Part shown: positions 12,808 through 38,489 of the stretch, piece by piece
How positions within the stretch are numbered: the stretch's first letter is position 1
Layout of the letters: each line of letters starts with the position of its first letter
Assembly (NCBI GenBank): GCA_947598395.1
Contig: CANQFG010000003.1
Span: 4,178 to 68,177 of the forward strand
Reading direction: 5' to 3'
DNA: 64,000 bases
From: an uncultured Bacilli bacterium
Lineage (GTDB): Bacteria > Bacillota_I > Bacilli_A > RF39 > UBA660
The notes under the pieces: model-generated
Told to the model about the DNA's origin: nothing
Databases searched by the model: none
What the model saw: the letters and a program-made list of their open reading frames with translations, nothing else
Translations under genes and position numbers: made by a program

Positions 12808-13263
12808 CTACTTTAGCAAACCTTTAAAAGGGTTTATATATTCTTTCTTACTTAATTTGTCTTCCATCATATCTTCTTTTTCTTGTTCTCTTATATATTT
12901 CCTTATTGTTGCTTCATTTAATCCTACTGTACTTACATAGTAGCCCGTTGCCCAAAAATTTCGATTCCCAAACTTATACTTCAAATTTGGATTCTTTTCA
13001 AAGATCATCAAACTACTTTTTCCTTTCAAATACCCCATGAAACTTGATACACTCATTCTTGGTGGGATTTCTACTAACAAATGCACATGGTCTGGCATCA
13101 TATGTCCTTCTAGGATTTCTACTCCCTTCCACTTACATAAATCCTTTATATACTTTTGGATTTCTTTTCTTAATTTATTGTATATGGTTTTTCTTCTATA
13201 TTTTGGTATAAATACAATATGGTACTTGCACATATACTTGGTATGTGCTAAACTTTTAGCCAT
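12808..13263 (-). CDS. tnpA: IS200/IS605-family transposase TnpA (Y1 HUH transposase)
   Basis: CKYHIVFIPKYRRK and MPDHVHLLVEIPP (HUH motif), with a Tyr-containing GYYVSTVG region. 151 aa. Confidence 0.93.
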   Translation of the reverse strand: MAKSLAHTKYMCKYHIVFIPKYRRKTIYNKLRKEIQKYIKDLCKWKGVEILEGHMMPDHVHLLVEIPPRMSVSSFMGYLKGKSSLMIFEKNPNLKYKFGNRNFWATGYYVSTVGLNEATIRKYIREQEKEDMMEDKLSKKEYINPFKGLLK

Positions 13264-19945: not shown

Positions 19946-20518
19946 TTAAGCAGCAGCTCCGGCAGGACCAGTTGGACCTTGTGGAATCGTCAAATCGAGG
20001 ACAAAATTTGGCGCTGTACCCGAAATCGTAGCAGTAGCAGTTCCTCCTGGCGTTCCCGTCGTAACTGTTCCAATTGTCAAAACAGGCGTAGCTCCCGTTG
20101 GGCCGGTTTCACCCGTGGCTCCCGTTGGACCTTGTGGACCGATTGGACCAGCAACACCAGTTTCTCCAGTAGCACCCGTGGCTCCAGTAGCGCCAGTAGC
20201 TCCGGTTGGACCTGTAGCTCCAGTAGCACCAGTGGCTCCGGTAGCACCTACCGCGCCGGCAATTCCTTGTGGACCAGCAACTCCTTGAGGACCAGTTGGC
20301 CCTTGAGATCCTTGAGCACCATTAGTACCAGCAGGTCCTTGAGGTCCTTGTAAACCTTGAACCCCTTGTGGTCCCGTTGGCCCCATGATTCCTGGAACGC
20401 CTTGTAAGCCTTGAACTCCTTGAGGTCCGGTTGGTCCTTGAGGGCCAGTAGCTCCGGTTGGACCGACATTAGCTGGCGGCGTTGGCCGGAAGCCATTACA
20501 TTGGTAACTATTATTCAT
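19946..20518 (-). CDS. Collagen-like triple-helix repeat protein (BclA-like architecture)
   Basis: 42 uninterrupted Gly-X-Y triplets (aa 19-144), then a short beta-rich tail [37 protein letters not shown]. No signal peptide. AAAGGAAAG RBS. Confidence 0.9.
20087..20464 (-). repeat. Coding GXY triplet repeat array (GGN-NNN-NNN x42), including two runs of (GAT)4
   Basis: Direct reading shows 9-bp periodic GGAGCNACN units. The region is locally GC-rich relative to its surroundings. Confidence 0.9.
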
Positions 20519-30593: not shown

Positions 30594-30620
30594 TAAAAAA
30601 ACTCGTTAGAACGAGATTTT
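30594..30620 (-). terminator. Rho-independent terminator after tRNA-Glu
   Basis: Minus strand reads CTCGT-tcta-ACGAG followed by TTTTTTT. Confidence 0.6.
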
Positions 30621-30633
30621 AAATAACTAAAAA

Positions 30634-30710
30634 TGGTGACCTGTATGGGATTCGGACCCATGTATGTAACCTTGAGAGGGTTATGTGTTCAACCACTTCA
30701 CCAACAGGCC
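30634..30710 (-). tRNA. tRNA-Glu (anticodon CUC), CCA-encoded, with an atypical T-loop (UCCGAAU)
   Basis: Hand-folded cloverleaf. Acceptor stem GGCCTGT/ACAGGTC with the G2-U71 pair also seen in the B. subtilis tRNA-Glu sequence as I recall it. D stem GTG/CAC with a GG in the loop. Anticodon stem TAACC/GGTTA with loop CTCTCAA. T stem ATGGG/CCCAT. Discriminator A plus CCA. Confidence 0.85.
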
Positions 30711-30783: not shown

Positions 30784-32316
30784 TTATAAATCATTAAAAG
30801 TATTAACTTCTTTATTGGCAAGAGGTGCCTCATTTATTATTAAACTCGTCGTCGTAAGCAACATTCCCGCAATCGAGATGGCGTTTAAAAAGGCCGATTC
30901 TTGAACCTTTAAGGAATCGATTACCATGGTATCATCGACTTTTTCATAACAATTATTTTGAATATTATAAAGCTTTTTAAAGTTTGCTTTTTCCATTTCG
31001 GCAACAATATCCCGATAATCGAGGCCCGCATTAATCATAATTTGCTTTAGAGGTTCTTTTAAGGCATGGGTAATTACAGTCTTGCCGATAGAATCGTCCT
31101 CCATTTTTAAGGCAATATCATAAAAACTTATTCCACCACCAGGCATAACGCCTTCACGAGATGAAGAAAGAGCACATAGAGCATCATCAAAGCGCATCTT
31201 CATCTCCCGACGTTCCGTCTTCGTCTTAGCACCGACTTCGATGGTAATGATGCCCGTTGAAAGTCCGGCAATGCGCCGGCCTAATTGCTCATCTTCTTCA
31301 AAATCTTTATCCAAGTTTTCCTTTAAAGAGGCCACATAAGAGGTTATCTTTGAATTTTCATTAAACTGAAGTTCGGTAACATCATTTTTAATAAGGCATT
31401 TTTCGACATGACCGATGCTAAGCGCCATATCAAGTTCCGTCATATCGCCAATCACGGATAAATCGCTGATAAAAGATAATTTTTCTTTGCTATAGCCCGG
31501 CAAAGATAAGGGAATTACCGGAATATCATCGCTTAAATACCACGATAGAAGCTGATTGATAACCGCCTCATCAAAGCCATCGGCGAATATTATAAAGGGT
31601 TTTCTTTGCTCCAACAGCTCATTTAATAAACTGGCAATATTTTCTAAACCAGATAAATAATTTTTATAAATAATTACGGCAGGATTTGATAATTCAATAC
31701 TATTTTTTCCCTTAAAAAAGTAATTTGATGGCATAATTGTATCGAAGACATAGCCCTTTTGATAGATGACATTTGTCTTTTCGATATCCTTATCGACGAC
31801 ATTTATCGCAGCAGAAGAAGCGACTTTTAGATAGGCTGAACTAACGATGGACCCAATTTCTTCCGATGATGCAGCAATCGTCGCGATCTTTTTTAGTTCG
31901 CGTTCCCTCGGTTTAAAGGCGTATTTTTTTACCATTTCGACAACTTTGGGTGCGACTGATTCGAGTTCCTGTTTGATGGTTATGGGATTTATTCCCTTGT
32001 TCACAAATTCCAAGCCATAGTTATATAAACCTTGCAACAATACCAGAGTCGTCGTCGTTCCATCGCCCACAATCATTTGGGTACTAATAGAAGCTTCTTT
32101 AGCCAATTCGAGAATCGTATTGATAACCGGATCATCGCTCACGATATTTTCGGCAATCGTCACACCATCATTTGTAATATAGGGCGTTAAAAGCGAGTGA
32201 TCGATTATAACATTACTTCCCTTGGGTCCAAGCGTCGTCTTCACAGTATCGCAAAGCAGATTGATGGCCTCGACCATCTTTGCTTGAAGCTCTTCTCCTT
32301 TGACAATTTTTTTCAT
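30784..32316 (-). CDS. Divergent Cpn60/GroEL-family chaperonin paralog (no adjacent groES, no GGM tail)
   Basis: TLGPKGSNVI, ITNDGVTIAENI, VGDGTTTTLVL, RFDDAL and EGVMPGGG align with the GroEL equatorial ATP-site motifs. 510 aa. The ATG overlaps the upstream stop codon (ATGA). Confidence 0.85.
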   Translation of the reverse strand: MKKIVKGEELQAKMVEAINLLCDTVKTTLGPKGSNVIIDHSLLTPYITNDGVTIAENIVSDDPVINTILELAKEASISTQMIVGDGTTTTLVLLQGLYNYGLEFVNKGINPITIKQELESVAPKVVEMVKKYAFKPRERELKKIATIAASSEEIGSIVSSAYLKVASSAAINVVDKDIEKTNVIYQKGYVFDTIMPSNYFFKGKNSIELSNPAVIIYKNYLSGLENIASLLNELLEQRKPFIIFADGFDEAVINQLLSWYLSDDIPVIPLSLPGYSKEKLSFISDLSVIGDMTELDMALSIGHVEKCLIKNDVTELQFNENSKITSYVASLKENLDKDFEEDEQLGRRIAGLSTGIITIEVGAKTKTERREMKMRFDDALCALSSSREGVMPGGGISFYDIALKMEDDSIGKTVITHALKEPLKQIMINAGLDYRDIVAEMEKANFKKLYNIQNNCYEKVDDTMVIDSLKVQESAFLNAISIAGMLLTTTSLIINEAPLANKEVNTFNDL

Positions 32317-33065
32317 AGTTCATCCTTCACCTCCAAAATGTATTGCCAATACTTCTTAGGCATAAAATTACGTCGACAACGGCTATTGGCCCGTTCCTTG
32401 ATGCCAATCGTTTGATAAAATCTTAACCACAACTTTTGATAATCGCGTTCTTCCAGGCTCTCATTAAGGGGAAAAAGATCAAAACTATCGGCATTGACAA
32501 TATAAAAATTCTTTTTATCATATACACTTATTATTTGCCGTTTGGTATCTTTTATAATCCAAAATTCTTGACTTAACCGGCGCTTAAAATGCTTGGATAA
32601 CAAACCAATAATGTTATTGACGGGAGCCATTTCGGCATATAAGACATGATTTTCCAATTCTTTAAAGCGCAGAAAGCCCTTTAATTTATGATTTTCCCGA
32701 CTGACATATTGACTAATTTTTAAAACTTCATGGACACTAGTTAAATTGCGCATGACATAGATATCATGTCCATATGTGAGGTAATGGGCAAGGAAATAAT
32801 AGATTAGCAATTCCTTATATTCATGTTCCGATAAAAAACAATAATATATCGTCGTAAAGACCTGTTTGCCGAAGACCTTTATCATCTGTTGCATCGTCGC
32901 ATCGAGGTTCTTAACCTCGAGTAATACCGTCTCATCGAAGAGATCAAAATCCGCCGTATCCGGCTTGATGTTTTGGGGAACAATATGATTTTTTAATAGC
33001 ATATCGATAAGTCCCAATAAGGGTAAAAATTCGCCATTATATAAATAGGTATATCTTTTCTTCAT
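32313..33065 (-). CDS. DUF4130 / TIGR03915-like putative DNA-metabolism protein (partner of the radical SAM protein)
   Basis: 250 aa. The C-terminal WLRFYQTIGIKERANSRCRRNFMPKKYW pattern and the obligatory pairing with the upstream radical SAM gene fit TIGR03915. Assignment is from memory of the family, not a search. Confidence 0.7.
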   Translation of the reverse strand: MKKRYTYLYNGEFLPLLGLIDMLLKNHIVPQNIKPDTADFDLFDETVLLEVKNLDATMQQMIKVFGKQVFTTIYYCFLSEHEYKELLIYYFLAHYLTYGHDIYVMRNLTSVHEVLKISQYVSRENHKLKGFLRFKELENHVLYAEMAPVNNIIGLLSKHFKRRLSQEFWIIKDTKRQIISVYDKKNFYIVNADSFDLFPLNESLEERDYQKLWLRFYQTIGIKERANSRCRRNFMPKKYWQYILEVKDEL

Positions 33066-33066
33066 C

Positions 33067-34275
33067 TTAAAATAACGACAACTGTTCCCGCTTTTCCTCG
33101 AAAGTGACAGTATCCTCCAATATCAAATTTTGCTCGATAAAATGGGACGTAAAATGCATCATATCCGTAAAATATTTATGATCACATGTAATAAAATATT
33201 TGGCTCTCTTGAGGACGACGCCCATCTTCTTTAAATCCGACATTTGTAGCGTAAATTTTTTTCGTGCAGCCATTATCCGCTTCGCCGATGTGACACCAAT
33301 GCCCGGAATTCTTAAAAGTTCGCGATAAGAGCAGGTATTTATCTCCTTTGGAAACTCATGCAAATTGCGCAAGGCCCATTCCGCTTTGGGATCGATCAAT
33401 AAGTTAAAATTAGGCCGATCGGGATTTAAGATTTCTCGAACATTAAAATGATAATACCGCATGAGCCAATCGGCTTGATAGAGGCGATTTTCCCGCTTTA
33501 AGGGCGGAACTTTGATGCTCGGCAAGAGCTTGTCCTGATTAACGGGAATATATGCCGAATAGAAAACGCGCTTCAATTTATAGTTGTCATACATGTTCGC
33601 ACTGCGATTTAAAATATCCCAATCACTTTCATTGGTCGCACCGACGATCATTTGGGTACTTTGCCCCGCAGGCACATACTTACGACTGCGATTATCCTTG
33701 ACATATTGCATGATCTTTGTGACATTTTGACTCTCTTTATTGGGCGCAAGGAGCTTCAAGCCTCCTTCCGTCGGCAACTCGATATTCGCACTCATGCGAT
33801 CGGCCAATCCGCCAAGGCGTTTTAATAAACTCTCGCTCGCTCCGGGAATCGCCTTGACGTGAATGTATCCGCCAAAGTGATATTTATGGCGCAGAAGTTC
33901 AAGCGTTTCAATCAGTAGATTCATCGTATAATCCGGACTCTTAATTATTCCCGAACTTAAAAATAATCCCTCGATGTAATTGCGTCGATAGAAATTAAGC
34001 GTAATCTCGGCTACTTCCTCTGGCGTAAAAAGGGCCCGTTTGACATCGTTACTGCGGCGATTCAAACAGTATTTGCAATCATAAATACAGCAGTTGGTCA
34101 TGAGGATTTTTAATAAGGATATACAGCGTCCATCGCTGGCAAAAGAATGACAAATTCCCGAAAAAGAAGTATTTCCAATCGTCCCCTTCCCGACACCCGT
34201 ACTTCCACTCGATGAACACGAGGCATCGTACTTGGCACTATCGGCTAAGATTGTAAGTTTTTCCATGAGTTCCAT
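33067..34275 (-). CDS. Putative DNA modification/repair radical SAM protein (TIGR03916-like) with C-terminal helix-hairpin-helix
   Basis: N-terminal AKYDASCSSSGS, radical SAM CxxxCxxC (CIYDCKYC) and HhH LLRIPGIGVTSAKRI. Start set to the ATG at 34275 after AGGTGA. Confidence 0.85.
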   Translation of the reverse strand: MELMEKLTILADSAKYDASCSSSGSTGVGKGTIGNTSFSGICHSFASDGRCISLLKILMTNCCIYDCKYCLNRRSNDVKRALFTPEEVAEITLNFYRRNYIEGLFLSSGIIKSPDYTMNLLIETLELLRHKYHFGGYIHVKAIPGASESLLKRLGGLADRMSANIELPTEGGLKLLAPNKESQNVTKIMQYVKDNRSRKYVPAGQSTQMIVGATNESDWDILNRSANMYDNYKLKRVFYSAYIPVNQDKLLPSIKVPPLKRENRLYQADWLMRYYHFNVREILNPDRPNFNLLIDPKAEWALRNLHEFPKEINTCSYRELLRIPGIGVTSAKRIMAARKKFTLQMSDLKKMGVVLKRAKYFITCDHKYFTDMMHFTSHFIEQNLILEDTVTFEEKREQLSLF

Positions 34276-34356
34276 TCGCATCACCTAAATCAATTATAGC
34301 GCATCTCAAAGAAAAAGTAAACATTTGTTCGATATAAAGGTGTAAAAAAACATCGC

Positions 34357-35598: not shown

Positions 35599-35895
35599 TT
35601 AAAGTCCTAAGATAATCAAATCCTCAAGAGAATCGCGAACAATATTGACAAATATCCGCGGTTCTATTTGATCGACAAAGGAGGCAATATTTTCCTTAGA
35701 CGTAATAATCAAATCCGGTCTTTGCCGAATAATATTGGCAATTTCTTCACGTAATCCCAAAGAATTATAATAGTTTAAAACCTCTCTAATCTTAACTTCA
35801 TATAACCCCATGAGTTCGATATATTCCATCTTAAGTTCATGCATCAAATTGGCATAATCGGCATCCGTTACGCCATATTCTTTAATATATTCAAT
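35599..35895 (-). CDS. Small helical-repeat protein (98 aa), third gene of an unknown operon
   Basis: Start MIEYIK... at 35895 overlaps the upstream stop (ATGATTGA). Contains LGLREEIANIIRQRPDLIITSKENIASFVDQI, an mTERF-like repeat pattern. Confidence 0.55.
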   Translation of the reverse strand: MEYIKEYGVTDADYANLMHELKMEYIELMGLYEVKIREVLNYYNSLGLREEIANIIRQRPDLIITSKENIASFVDQIEPRIFVNIVRDSLEDLIILGL

Positions 35896-37270
35896 CATTG
35901 ATATCACCCCAAATAGGCCGTTCCAATTTAGCATTTTGATAAATGACGCCAATAAGCAATTTAGTATAATCGATATAATCTTGGTCCTTAGACATCTTTT
36001 TGATAAGCGGCAATTTTTCATTTAAATGCACGCATTTTAACAAGGCATAATTTTGCACAATATCTTCAAAATAAAGGCCAACATCGACGCCATTTTCCCT
36101 TAAGACATCGATATTATCGATCAATAATTCGGGATTTAAAAGTAAGGATTTATAGCATTTATTGACGATTTGAACTTTATTGGCACCATACATCTCGAGA
36201 TAATGAAGCGTATAATTGATGATATCACTATTGGAGATGAGGAAAAGGGGATTTTTCTTGATGAGGGAACGATAATTAACTTTGAGTTTTTTAAGTAAAG
36301 ATATATTGGTAATATAATCTTTAAATTTTGGATGAAAATAGCCATTTTCTTTTTCGAGAATACATGTTCCAACATTGTTAAGAAGCATCTTTAGACTCGG
36401 AATATCGACGGCCCCATTTGAAAGCCGCAGACTATCGACGACACCCCTAATCGAATCCGGCGTTGCATATAATAGAATAGCGATTTTAAAGAGATAATTT
36501 TCGCGATTGATCAAATGCAAGATGCCATAATCTTCCGCTTTATTGCGCCGTATTAAATCATAGAGATTTGTAATTCCTTCGACATTAGCTTTGCGCAATT
36601 CCGTAATAATATAACTCGGTAATTCGCGATAATTAACATTGAACTTATCGATAATTTCGCGTATCCGTTTATTGACCGTTTGCCGATGCGTATAACTTAT
36701 CTCGATATCTTCCTCACTGTTTTGATTAGCTACCCGTAAAATAAAGATATTATGATCATTGATATATTGCATGATCTTGAGCATATTAATATCAAATTCT
36801 TGGGGATTATAATCGCGAACAATTTTTTCGATATACGAAAATTCCGTAATAACTTCCGAAGTCATAATCTTATGATACAATTTTTGACAATTATAATATT
36901 CGCTTTCGACATCGACTAAATCGGGATTTGTAGCATCGAGCATATCTTTAAAAATTGTTAAAAAGTTTTTAACGATATTAGCAAATTTGTTCGATAATTT
37001 GACATTCAAATGATATTGTTTTTTGCCGATAAATAAGTCGCGAATATGCTTAATATCCTCTTCTTTGATTCTTTGTTTTAAATCATAACTGAGAATATAA
37101 TTAATTAAAGCATCGGAAAAAGAAGCTAGTTCATCATAGGAATTTAGCAGTTTATTATAGAGTACAACTAAATTGATATCGTCGAAATAAAGTGCCTTTT
37201 TATCAAGATTATCGAGATAGTGCAACTTGGCATCGATTATTTCGATAAATAATTCTTTCCCCTCATTCAT
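35891..37270 (-). CDS. All-helical repeat protein (459 aa), mTERF-like repeats in the C-terminal half; function unknown
   Basis: ORF with a GGAG RBS. Repeats include IKKNPLFLISNSDIINYTLHYLEMYG and NKCYKSLLLNPELLIDNIDVLRENGVD. Confidence 0.6.
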   Translation of the reverse strand: MNEGKELFIEIIDAKLHYLDNLDKKALYFDDINLVVLYNKLLNSYDELASFSDALINYILSYDLKQRIKEEDIKHIRDLFIGKKQYHLNVKLSNKFANIVKNFLTIFKDMLDATNPDLVDVESEYYNCQKLYHKIMTSEVITEFSYIEKIVRDYNPQEFDINMLKIMQYINDHNIFILRVANQNSEEDIEISYTHRQTVNKRIREIIDKFNVNYRELPSYIITELRKANVEGITNLYDLIRRNKAEDYGILHLINRENYLFKIAILLYATPDSIRGVVDSLRLSNGAVDIPSLKMLLNNVGTCILEKENGYFHPKFKDYITNISLLKKLKVNYRSLIKKNPLFLISNSDIINYTLHYLEMYGANKVQIVNKCYKSLLLNPELLIDNIDVLRENGVDVGLYFEDIVQNYALLKCVHLNEKLPLIKKMSKDQDYIDYTKLLIGVIYQNAKLERPIWGDIND

Positions 37271-37298
37271 TCTTTTTCAACTCCATTTATCGTCGTCT

Positions 37299-38489
37299 TT
37301 AATATTCTTTACTATTCTCCCGTTTGGCCATCAAATTATCATAGGCCGTCAAAAGTTCGGATATGATCTCACTCGAAAGTTTATAATCTTCGGAAAAGGA
37401 ACTTAAACTATCGGCCTTCTTAAGGGAATCCATAAGCGTCTTTAAAATGGGCAGACTCTTCAAATCGATAGCTTCATCCAAACTCGTTCCTTCGCTCATA
37501 ATTTCTTTAAGAGATAGGTCCAAATAATCATAGATATCGCGCGTTAAACCGGCTAAACTATTATCGAAGAAAGCTTGTTTTTCGCGAATTAGTTGCTCGG
37601 CCTTCTTTAATGTTTCGTTGTGAATGGGTACTAAACTCTTGAGAAGATAGTCGATATTTTCCCTATCGGGATTTTTCTTTTCCTTTAAATCATTTAAAAC
37701 GATGGAAACTAAAGTATCATAGACGAGATCATATTCCAAGCTAAAGTTAGCAGCAAAATCACAAGCTATAAAGTCAAGATGTTCGATATCGATGGGATTT
37801 TTTTTGACATATTCTTTAAGGACTTCCAATACGGGATTTTCCGGAACGAGATATTTATTCGTCTCATGATTAATTTGAAAATACATATCGATTTCCGTAC
37901 TTGGCATCTTCATATTTTCGACATTTTGATGGGCCAAATAGGCAAGAATTTGCCATTGATCTTCCTTAGAAATACCCAAAGATGATAGCAATTTATTCAA
38001 TTCGGAAAAATCTTCAAACAACGAGTTATCCTTATGTGAAAATAAGTCGATATATTTTTGATATAATCTTTGATTCTTCTCTTGCGCCAAAGCTGCGGTC
38101 GTCGTATAGTTTTCATAATCTTGGCGGTAATCTTTTAACGTATCTAACAAGCGATGAAAGAAATCTTGGACCGTCCGAACATCTTCGAGGCCCTTAGCAA
38201 CTTGGGATTTAATGACATGACGTTCATAATCGGCAAGATAATCATCTAAGGCATCTTGTTGAAAACCGATAAGCTTTAATATCCGCGCTAAATCCTTGCT
38301 ATCAAAATTCGTGACATCTTCAATTGTCAAATCCTTGATATCCTTACCTAAAGATTTCCTAATAATATCGGCAACTTGCTCATAATTGGCAGTTGCTTCG
38401 CGAGGTGGCATCGTAATATTTAAAATTTCCATACGTTTATTTAATTCATCGAGTAAATTATTAATAGATTCATTAAATCTATTGGCCAT
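37299..38489 (-). CDS. All-helical protein (396 aa), first gene of the unknown operon
   Basis: ORF with a GGGAGG RBS. Recurrent L..LG.s.ed motifs (LARILKLIGFQQDAL, LNKLLSSLGISKEDQ). No signal peptide or TM helix. Confidence 0.6.
   Translation of the reverse strand: MANRFNESINNLLDELNKRMEILNITMPPREATANYEQVADIIRKSLGKDIKDLTIEDVTNFDSKDLARILKLIGFQQDALDDYLADYERHVIKSQVAKGLEDVRTVQDFFHRLLDTLKDYRQDYENYTTTAALAQEKNQRLYQKYIDLFSHKDNSLFEDFSELNKLLSSLGISKEDQWQILAYLAHQNVENMKMPSTEIDMYFQINHETNKYLVPENPVLEVLKEYVKKNPIDIEHLDFIACDFAANFSLEYDLVYDTLVSIVLNDLKEKKNPDRENIDYLLKSLVPIHNETLKKAEQLIREKQAFFDNSLAGLTRDIYDYLDLSLKEIMSEGTSLDEAIDLKSLPILKTLMDSLKKADSLSSFSEDYKLSSEIISELLTAYDNLMAKRENSKEY

Follow-up and report, generated by a model that had tools for sequence, protein, structure and literature searches.

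Why should a chaperonin gene be joined to two genes of a putative DNA repair system, and what might its product do there? This question is raised by a 64,000-nt stretch of DNA from an uncultured Bacilli bacterium (contig CANQFG010000003.1 of assembly GCA_947598395.1; the whole stretch is referred to below as the window), in which the genes for a radical S-adenosylmethionine (rSAM) protein, a DUF4130 protein, and a divergent chaperonin of the Cpn60 family follow one another on the minus strand (Table 1). A sequence-only reading of the window, made by a model, had singled out this trio. Our data show that the three genes form a module that is conserved throughout one bacterial clade, and we use this conservation, together with the sequence, predicted structure, and evolution of the Cpn60, to weigh what the chaperonin may contribute to its neighbors.

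The linkage was examined both ways, that is, outward from the Cpn60 and outward from the rSAM protein. Starting from the Cpn60 clade, we found the rSAM-DUF4130 pair directly upstream in all of the ~20 readable loci, and groES in none of them. The Cpn60-based loci include the window, L001, L004, L005, L007-L009 (GTDB metagenome-assembled genomes [MAGs], among the matches listed), L087-L090 and L092 (which carry less-derived Cpn60 members), L173 (Breznakia sp. PF5-3), and L175; their encoded proteins, where cited by number, pair up as L001 with P0075, L004 with P0002, L005 with P0083, L087 with P0175, L088 with P0172, L089 with P0146, L090 with P0279, and L092 with P0186. At control loci of canonical GroEL (77 + 1, among the matches listed), groES was located upstream in 75 of 78 cases and the rSAM pair in 0 of 78. 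In the opposite direction, 80 metagenome loci were sampled by their rSAM gene, with identity measured to the rSAM protein of the window. Wherever this identity was at least 60% and downstream sequence was available, the Cpn60 gene came directly after DUF4130 (6 of 6 loci, L093-L098, with a GC content of 23-30%), and it occurred in 0 of the 59 loci whose identity did not exceed 59% and whose sequence continued for at least 1.5 kb downstream. These non-trio loci host a standalone DUF4130 protein of ~250-290 amino acids (aa) and no constant downstream gene, and the same holds for the annotated Acinetobacter and Pusillibacter loci.

Within the clade, adjacency is kept even where the identity between Cpn60 proteins falls to ~29%, and no locus from which the Cpn60 had been lost was found among the close rSAM relatives. 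Flanking genes differ from one trio locus to the next, and only the trio itself is kept; the junctions between DUF4130 and Cpn60 mostly overlap or abut, with a gap of 24 nt in Breznakia. Since every one of the ~20 Cpn60 loci carries the pair, compared with 0 of 78 canonical loci, and since the rSAM-based survey shows so sharp a boundary (6 of 6 vs 0 of 59), the linkage is not due to chance. Collectively, the two-way survey therefore identifies the trio as a clade-specific and strongly conserved innovation upon a widespread two-gene system. It is confined to one clade of gut and insect-gut Firmicutes, composed of Erysipelotrichales such as Breznakia and of related low-GC "Bacilli" MAGs. The sequence-only reading had let its proposal hang on whether the adjacency recurs in related genomes, which it does in all of the ~20 neighborhoods surveyed. 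It had also pointed to the lack of a neighboring groES; indeed, neither groES nor a second Cpn60 gene was found within the 64-kb window, and no trio locus has a groES gene. Its impression that the association is new agrees with the literature that we searched, in which no prior description of a chaperonin linked to this pair was found.

In the window itself, the ORF list and direct reading of the sequence bear out the layout that had been described, namely, three packed minus-strand genes with a 1-nt gap, an ATGA overlap, and an embedded ribosome binding site. More specifically, the rSAM stop codon TAA occupies 33069-33067, a single base (33066) follows, and the DUF4130 gene begins with ATG at 33065; the ATGA at 32316-32313 joins the DUF4130 stop to the Cpn60 start. 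The motifs listed in that reading (CIYDCKYC, LLRIPGIGVTSAKRI, VGDGTTTT, ITNDGVTIA, FDDAL, and PGGG) are all present in the translations. As to the gene calls, the true rSAM start is probably the ATG near 34275, a few codons downstream of the annotated GTG at 34284, because the alignment to the family model begins at residue 6 and AGGTGA directly precedes that ATG. In the public gene calls for the same organism (L177/L178, 315-1004), the DUF4130 gene starts 21 codons later and encodes 229 aa; given that TIGR03915 aligns from residue 7 of the 250-aa ORF, the longer call with its 1-nt spacing is the better one.

Profile searches confirmed the proposed identity of the first two genes as the TIGR03916 and TIGR03915 pair, both well above the cutoffs. 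The rSAM protein reached 611.6 bits against TIGR03916 in a full-length alignment (cutoff, 343.5) and matched the Pfam families Radical_SAM (40.1 bits) and HHH_3 (33.2 bits; cutoff, 27), and its partner reached 204.1 bits against TIGR03915 (cutoff, 112.25) and 147.7 bits against PF13566 (cutoff, 27). The cluster motif C66-x3-C70-x2-C73 is invariant. Across trio loci, the rSAM proteins are 59-73% identical; the window rSAM shares 50-55% identity with ordinary two-gene orthologs, and 50% with those of Acinetobacter. The window DUF4130 protein is standalone, with no domain of the uracil-DNA glycosylase (UDG) family fused to it or encoded in the flanking ORFs that were checked, which sets the locus apart from rSAM-DUF4130-UDG systems. 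A UDG as a fourth member of the module was considered and rejected: the UDG genes near L001 and L004 are mutually unrelated, and such genes are absent from the other trio loci and from the window. A sequence search of the PDB returned no meaningful match for the rSAM or the DUF4130 protein, and hence no relative of solved structure. In a study based on AlphaFold 3, a DUF4130-rSAM heterodimer with a narrow nucleic-acid channel was confidently predicted (bioRxiv 10.64898/2026.08.19.745780), and gene neighborhoods have tied DUF4130 and SplB-like rSAM proteins to SOS contexts (PMC3765255). A role in DNA repair or modification is presumed for the pair.

At one locus of the clade, L092 (MAG GCA_964492595.1, 3034-4242), the rSAM gene is broken in two, giving products of 289 and 94 aa, beside intact DUF4130 and Cpn60 genes; the cause is a frameshift or pseudogene, or else a faulty assembly. 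Outside the clade, ~9 Clostridia-type metagenome loci have an ORF of ~790-813 aa after the rSAM-DUF4130 pair, on the same strand and 40-385 nt beyond DUF4130, that encodes a DinG/XPD-type Fe-S helicase (DEAD_2 + Helicase_C_2) whose N terminus is extended (Table 1). In these loci, the helicase may take the place of the Cpn60 as an ATP-driven third partner, and the rSAM-DUF4130 system may thus repeatedly require a partner of this kind.

The third gene of the trio encodes a clear, complete, and highly divergent homolog of GroEL, in keeping with what had been read from its retained ATP motifs and missing GGM tail; compared with E. coli GroEL, it lacks 38 aa in length (~30 aa had first been estimated), and lengths in the clade range from 482 to 547 aa. 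It scores 154.6 bits against PF00118 (Cpn60_TCP1; cutoff, 34.3) and aligns end to end with the GroEL models, yet it reaches only 300 bits on TIGR02348 (equivalog cutoff, 582.1), lies below all five GroEL subfamily cutoffs, and falls far below the exception models for Chlamydia GroEL2 and GroEL3. On TIGR02348, canonical GroELs score 815-873 bits, and the clade forms a gradient from the Breznakia type (542-569 bits) through P0175 (448) and P0279 (428) to the window protein. Identity to Bacillus GroEL is 44% for the Breznakia type and 29% for the window form, compared with 62% between the E. coli and Bacillus proteins. An AlphaFold2 (AF2) model of the window protein, based on the family alignment, presents a complete three-domain group I subunit (mean pLDDT, 85.3) that superposes on GroES-bound GroEL/Hsp60 chains with TM-scores of 0.86-0.89 and a root-mean-square deviation of 3.0-3.5 Å. 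Among PDB entries, bacterial GroELs match its sequence best (210-235 bits).

An exhaustive search yielded ~57 full-length representatives of the Cpn60 clade at 50% clustering, and unnamed relatives with 42-48% identity to the window protein are numerous. Scores of the representatives on a paralog profile vs a canonical profile are bimodal with few intermediates, and a neighbor-joining tree unites all rSAM-linked Cpn60s in one clade, with the canonical GroELs clustering tightly elsewhere. Source records call the least-derived members "chaperonin GroEL [Breznakia sp. PF5-3]," "molecular chaperone GroEL [Breznakia pachnodae]" (WP_307409216.1), and "MAG: chaperonin GroEL [Coprobacillaceae bacterium]," with Breznakia belonging to the Erysipelotrichaceae. 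Derived members are labeled "hypothetical protein [Bacilli bacterium]," a MAG annotation that arises because the clade falls below every NCBIfam GroEL cutoff. Possible DUF4130-Cpn60 fusions were rejected, as the long matches (P0284, P0288, P0308, and P0212) are canonical GroELs with internal assembly duplications. Two further long proteins of high-GC type, P0183 (1,078 aa) and P0188 (1,081 aa), contain two complete and different Cpn60 units in tandem; since their halves differ, they are not assembly duplicates and could be natural covalent chaperonin dimers.

Is this protein still a working chaperonin? Residues were numbered as in E. coli GroEL, with a sequence that was typed in and validated by its 853 bits on TIGR02348, and were compared across 53 representatives plus the window protein. 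The ATP/Mg and catalytic residues (T30, D52, D87, T89-T91, D398, G414, G416, and D495) are invariant or nearly so, with T/S substitutions, and the hinge glycines G192, G375, and G410 are kept. The allosteric salt bridge R197-E386 is lost among the representatives (R197 replaced by T, S, I, or N, and E386 by K or T): R197 is gone from all subgroups, and E386 persists in the Breznakia type and is lost in more-derived members. The inter-ring contacts A109, R452, E461, S463, and V464 are variable or charged, a loss already found in the Breznakia type, and 51 of the 53 representatives lack the E434 loop. F44 is lost in derived members. In the Breznakia type, the apical groove is near-intact (Y199, Y203, M204, L237, L259, V263, and L264 are kept, and only L234 is changed), and in derived members it is eroded, L234 and V264 being mostly polar. 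The GGM tail, seen as the terminal GGMGGMGGM(M) in Bacillus and E. coli, is absent throughout the clade. The window Cpn60 ends in ...INEAPLANKEVNTFNDL; the Breznakia-type and neighboring subgroups share a conserved, clade-specific tail (...ESIIKKDLNDQLIxDSxxGLY) that is shortened in derived members.

Conservation is distributed accordingly along the protein, with 44 highly conserved columns in the equatorial, 7 in the intermediate, and 4 in the apical domain of the clade, compared with 91, 34, and 63, respectively, in canonical GroELs. The Cpn60 is under purifying selection, with a dN/dS of 0.09-0.18 in informative pairs (0.167 at a dS of 0.19 for L009 vs L096, and 0.087 for L001 vs L007); in the same operon, DUF4130 has a comparable dN/dS of 0.12-0.25, and rSAM, at 0.036, is more tightly constrained. 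Given that the ATP site is kept under purifying selection and that the inter-ring, allosteric, and tail features are gone, the Cpn60 reads as a working ATPase with a chaperonin body that lacks the hallmarks of the canonical double-ring GroEL cycle. We infer that it is a GroEL paralog and that a canonical groESL operon elsewhere in the genome would serve general folding, because of its divergence, because canonical features are already lost in the least-derived members, and because a survey of 4,861 complete genomes encountered every single-copy groEL beside groES, and stand-alone copies in multi-copy genomes (PMC5406781).

A possible cue for the biological setting of the trio lies in front of the rSAM gene, where a promoter-like sequence is overlapped at its -35 element by a palindrome (Table 1), the site itself being read as CGAACAAATGTTTA. 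The palindrome resembles CGAAC-N4-GTTYC, which we take to be the consensus of the Firmicute LexA (Cheo) box, and it is a candidate LexA-type or SOS-type site. Of 18 trio loci, 13 have a palindrome of the consensus (C/A)RAAC-AWWT-GTTYG ahead of the rSAM start, at a distance of 45-51 nt (29 nt in L004); a stricter scan with the Cheo consensus (score of at least 8 of 10) recovered a site in half of all these loci (9 of 18) against a background of 0.12 sites/kb. A position weight matrix (PWM) trained without the window site ranked the window palindrome top in the 64 kb, with a score of 16.2 vs 10.0 for the next site. Such a LexA-box-like operator fits the earlier neighborhood links of DUF4130 and SplB-like rSAM proteins to the SOS response (PMC3765255). 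Heat-shock control through HrcA/CIRCE was considered and set aside, as no CIRCE element is present in the window.

In Breznakia sp. PF5-3, a repressor gene with HTH_3 and Peptidase_S24 domains is located divergently upstream of the trio (L173, 3249-3863, minus strand), and its product is of the LexA/CI-like, self-cleaving type. Upstream of the rSAM gene in L173 and in the related L098, a perfect palindrome, GTACGTAAACGTAC, replaces the AAAC-N4-GTTT box of the other loci.

Given these results, we postulate that the Cpn60 is a chaperonin dedicated to the rSAM-DUF4130 pair as its client, regulated in SOS fashion and operating off the canonical double-ring cycle, and we would put the probability of this explanation at roughly one in two. 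In an ancestor of the Erysipelotrichales-related Bacilli, a duplicated group I chaperonin gene would have joined the pair as a third, translationally coupled cistron. DNA damage would induce the operon, and the coupling would supply the Cpn60 at a fixed ratio to the pair. Acting as an ATP-driven chaperone, probably as a single ring or another non-canonical assembly, it would fold, assemble, or stabilize the aggregation-prone Fe-S rSAM enzyme and/or the rSAM-DUF4130 complex once the operon is switched on, with general folding left to the canonical groESL elsewhere in the genome. There is a precedent in E. coli, where GroE binds and stabilizes the SOS polymerase subunit UmuC (PMC6590174).

Several observations weigh against this explanation. 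Conservation within the Cpn60 is lowest in the apical domain, where clients usually bind, and the rSAM protein is conserved at 59-73%, a combination unlike what a simple conserved client-binding site predicts. The pair, although widespread across many phyla, carries no annotation beyond "putative DNA modification/repair." No canonical groESL was found within the 10-20 kb that is visible around each trio in its assembly. As for the regulation, the remaining 5 of the 18 trio loci have a different palindrome or none, and the PWM detected no second SOS-type site in the 64-kb window, so that the regulator could be a dedicated repressor.

As the main alternative, which we regard as unlikely, the Cpn60 might not assist folding but belong as an integral ATPase subunit to a three-part machine that processes DNA damage, for example as a remodeler that loads or releases rSAM-DUF4130 on its substrate or as an unfoldase for protein bound or cross-linked to DNA. 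In the fullest form of this proposal, which is equally tentative, the Cpn60 would be a stoichiometric, GroES-independent ATPase subunit of a damage-induced, three-component machine for nucleic-acid repair or modification, with its clade-specific tail and fast-evolving apical domain docking on DUF4130. The strict 1:1:1 order with translational coupling is what such a machine would display, and the clade has lost double-ring, allosteric, and tail features and gained a conserved C-terminal tail of its own; in addition, some Clostridia carry a DinG/XPD-type helicase, an ATP-driven DNA-repair motor, after the pair, and DUF4130 is elsewhere linked to UDG-family DNA-binding domains. However, no nucleic-acid-binding feature was detected in the Cpn60, and chaperonin folds are not known to serve as subunits in DNA repair. 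A near-intact GroES/substrate groove is, moreover, kept in the least-derived members, with which a chaperonin origin and mode of action are more consistent. Were the proposal true, a chaperonin fold would for the first time be seen enlisted as a functional component of a DNA-transaction system.

The absence of a visible groESL around the trios could also mean that the Cpn60 is the only groEL of its lineage, relocated and fast-evolving, with groES elsewhere or lost and with stress co-regulation behind the operon link. We consider this quite improbable, even though the NCBI names for the Breznakia-type proteins ("chaperonin GroEL" and "molecular chaperone GroEL") point that way and the high AT content of the related loci (23-31% GC) is a hint of genome reduction. 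In some Mollicutes-like lineages, groESL has been lost. The window organism, however, has cell-wall genes, uvrA, and other ordinary genes, and it is therefore not extremely reduced. Even the least-derived form shows 44% identity to Bacillus GroEL where E. coli and Bacillus GroEL share 62%, and all members stay under the TIGR02348 cutoff (from 568 down to 300 bits, vs 815-873). Every subgroup lacks the inter-ring contacts, R197, and the GGM tail, and the more derived ones lack E386 as well; the dN/dS of the Cpn60 is ~4-5 times that of the neighboring rSAM gene; the window has no CIRCE element; and a single-copy groEL always adjoined groES in the 4,861 complete genomes (PMC5406781).

Could the Cpn60, as the fastest evolving of the three genes, simply be a redundant groEL copy that landed by chance behind the pair, is held there by operon inertia, and drifts toward loss? 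The range of lengths (482-547 aa), deletions in some lineages (e.g., L097), and the strongly relaxed apical domain point in that direction, but ~20 loci and over 50 representative clusters have an intact ORF, residues of the ATP site are either unchanged or replaced conservatively, dN/dS is 0.09-0.18, translational coupling is kept amid rearranged surroundings, and no loss was found among close rSAM relatives, all of which makes decay very unlikely. An origin of the chaperonin or of the whole module in a phage or mobile element, or a role in anti-phage defense, is the least credible of all, for although GroES-independent, GroEL-like phage chaperonins exist (PDB 6TMT) and the trio of L175 and L176 is followed closely by a DarTG-like DarT/Macro pair, phage chaperonins share no more than 31.7% identity with the Cpn60 and are no nearer than cellular GroELs, an IMG/VR scan with a paralog-specific pattern found no paralog-type gene (maximum, 33%), PADLOC gave only a marginal 14.9-bit match for the Cpn60 and none for rSAM or DUF4130, the flanks are housekeeping genes, and the clade grades smoothly into cellular Firmicute GroEL.

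The proposed dedicated chaperonin can be set beside several known systems. The ordinary TIGR03916-TIGR03915 system, as found in Acinetobacter baumannii and Pusillibacter faecalis, shares both proteins, their order, and a tight spacing with the window, but it has no third conserved gene, whereas the clade of the window always has the Cpn60 as its third cistron. In other phyla, DUF4130 occurs in linkage or fusion with a UDG-family (UdgX-like) domain, unlike the trio loci, where a UDG is neither fused nor consistently adjacent. Specialized GroEL paralogs such as Myxococcus xanthus GroEL2 (myxovirescin synthesis and predation), Mycobacterium GroEL1/Cpn60.1, rhizobial GroELs, and Chlamydia GroEL2/3 resemble the trio Cpn60 in being duplicated group I chaperonins with no adjacent groES, with apical and C-terminal divergence, and with presumed client specialization (PMC5406781, PMC3578752, PMC5904260). 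They differ in that they are not translationally coupled into the operon of a specific enzyme pair and in that most of them are much nearer to GroEL, whereas the trio Cpn60 goes down to ~29% identity and lies under every NCBIfam GroEL cutoff. In the case of the E. coli SOS translesion polymerase Pol V, GroEL/GroES is required to stabilize a damage-induced, aggregation-prone DNA-transaction protein, its client UmuC (PMC6590174); there, the chaperonin is the general, heat-shock-regulated housekeeping GroESL, whereas here a separate Cpn60 appears to be encoded in a damage-type operon. Pseudomonas phage EL gp146 (PDB 6TMT) and the group II/III chaperonins share the Cpn60-fold ATPase, possibly free of GroES and outside the canonical 14-mer cycle. 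Against these, the window Cpn60 scores 68 bits (6TMT) and 72-77 bits (thermosome models) over the equatorial domain only, vs 210-235 bits for cellular GroELs, and the phage EL chaperonin is viral, whereas the trio Cpn60 has no viral context.

Table 1. Features of the trio locus in the window and helicase-bearing loci outside the clade
Feature	Position	Strand	Remarks
rSAM gene	33067..34284	-	405-aa ORF, annotated GTG start; CIYDCKYC and C-terminal helix-hairpin-helix
DUF4130/TIGR03915 partner gene	32313..33065	-	250-aa ORF, standalone, without UDG domain
Divergent group I chaperonin (Cpn60) gene	30784..32316	-	510-aa ORF
Shine-Dalgarno-like GGAGGTGAAGGA for Cpn60 gene	32323..32334	-	Inside the 3' end of the DUF4130 gene; direct reading
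Promoter-like TTTACT-17 nt-TATAAT (sigma-70-like)	34293..34321	-	Directly upstream of rSAM; consensus match only, 10/12
Operator-like palindrome TCGAACAAATGTTTAC	34317..34332	-	Overlaps -35 element; resembles LexA (Cheo) box
tRNA-Glu, anticodon CTC	30634..30710	-	ARAGORN; 74 nt downstream of Cpn60 stop, before the only clean terminator
Intrinsic-terminator-like hairpin CTCGTTCTAACGAG, then TTTTTTT	30602..30615	-	Terminator scan; only clean terminator
DinG/XPD-type helicase loci	L122 (7216 onward), L144, L117, L121, L123, L126, L133, L155	Same as pair	

The trio of the window is surrounded by unrelated housekeeping genes, namely, a PBP5-type carboxypeptidase gene upstream and tRNA-Glu(CTC) and a GT4 glycosyltransferase gene downstream, and the ORFs flanking it encode PBP5, GT4, HAD, and ABC transporter proteins. 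The terminator scan revealed no hairpin between the three genes comparable to that at 30602..30615, which is the likely end of the transcription unit. The tRNA-Glu gene, whose anticodon is the rarer one, is outside the conserved module at other trio loci. Because it lies between the Cpn60 stop and the only terminator and yet has a promoter-like site of its own (30759-30731), it may be transcribed both together with the operon and alone.

Other neighboring genes deserve mention as well. In one Coprobacillaceae-type MAG, Macro-domain and DarT genes are located directly downstream of the trio (L175, 9902-11580; L176, 3869-5733) and look like a DarTG toxin-antitoxin pair, DarT being a DNA ADP-ribosyltransferase. 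In the window, three consecutive minus-strand ORFs (140, 459, and 396 aa; 35599-38489) that directly precede the PBP5 gene could be assigned to no Pfam family, their sole match being a weak, sub-threshold mTERF match in the first. A minus-strand ORF at 19946-20518 includes a collagen-like Gly-X-Y repeat region. Finally, a 151-aa ORF at 12808-13263 (minus strand; N terminus MAKSLAHTKYMCKYHIVFIPKYRRK...), which sits within a region of ribosomal protein and translation factor genes, resembles, by eye only, a Y1 transposase of the IS200/IS605 family.

Divergent stand-alone GroEL paralogs were already known; what appears to be new is the strict, translationally coupled place of one of them in a TIGR03916/TIGR03915 operon, and the SOS-like operator, the depth of the divergence, and the available evolutionary series appear to be further novelties. 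The labels "hypothetical protein" and "chaperonin GroEL" both mislead, including in cpn60 barcoding and in marker or copy-number inference in these lineages. For the TIGR03916/TIGR03915 pair, the trio offers new handles in the SOS-like operator, in a likely need for the chaperonin, which would be useful for expression, and in its cultured hosts, Breznakia pachnodae and Breznakia sp. PF5-3. Since these strains are cultured, the trio is experimentally tractable. The clade provides an evolutionary series from GroEL-like to very derived proteins, which shows which features are dispensable, i.e., second-ring contacts, the salt bridge, and the GGM tail. The trio Cpn60 is a natural, genetically hard-wired candidate for a chaperonin that serves one client system, and with it the client specificity of GroEL paralogs, a long-standing question, becomes directly testable.

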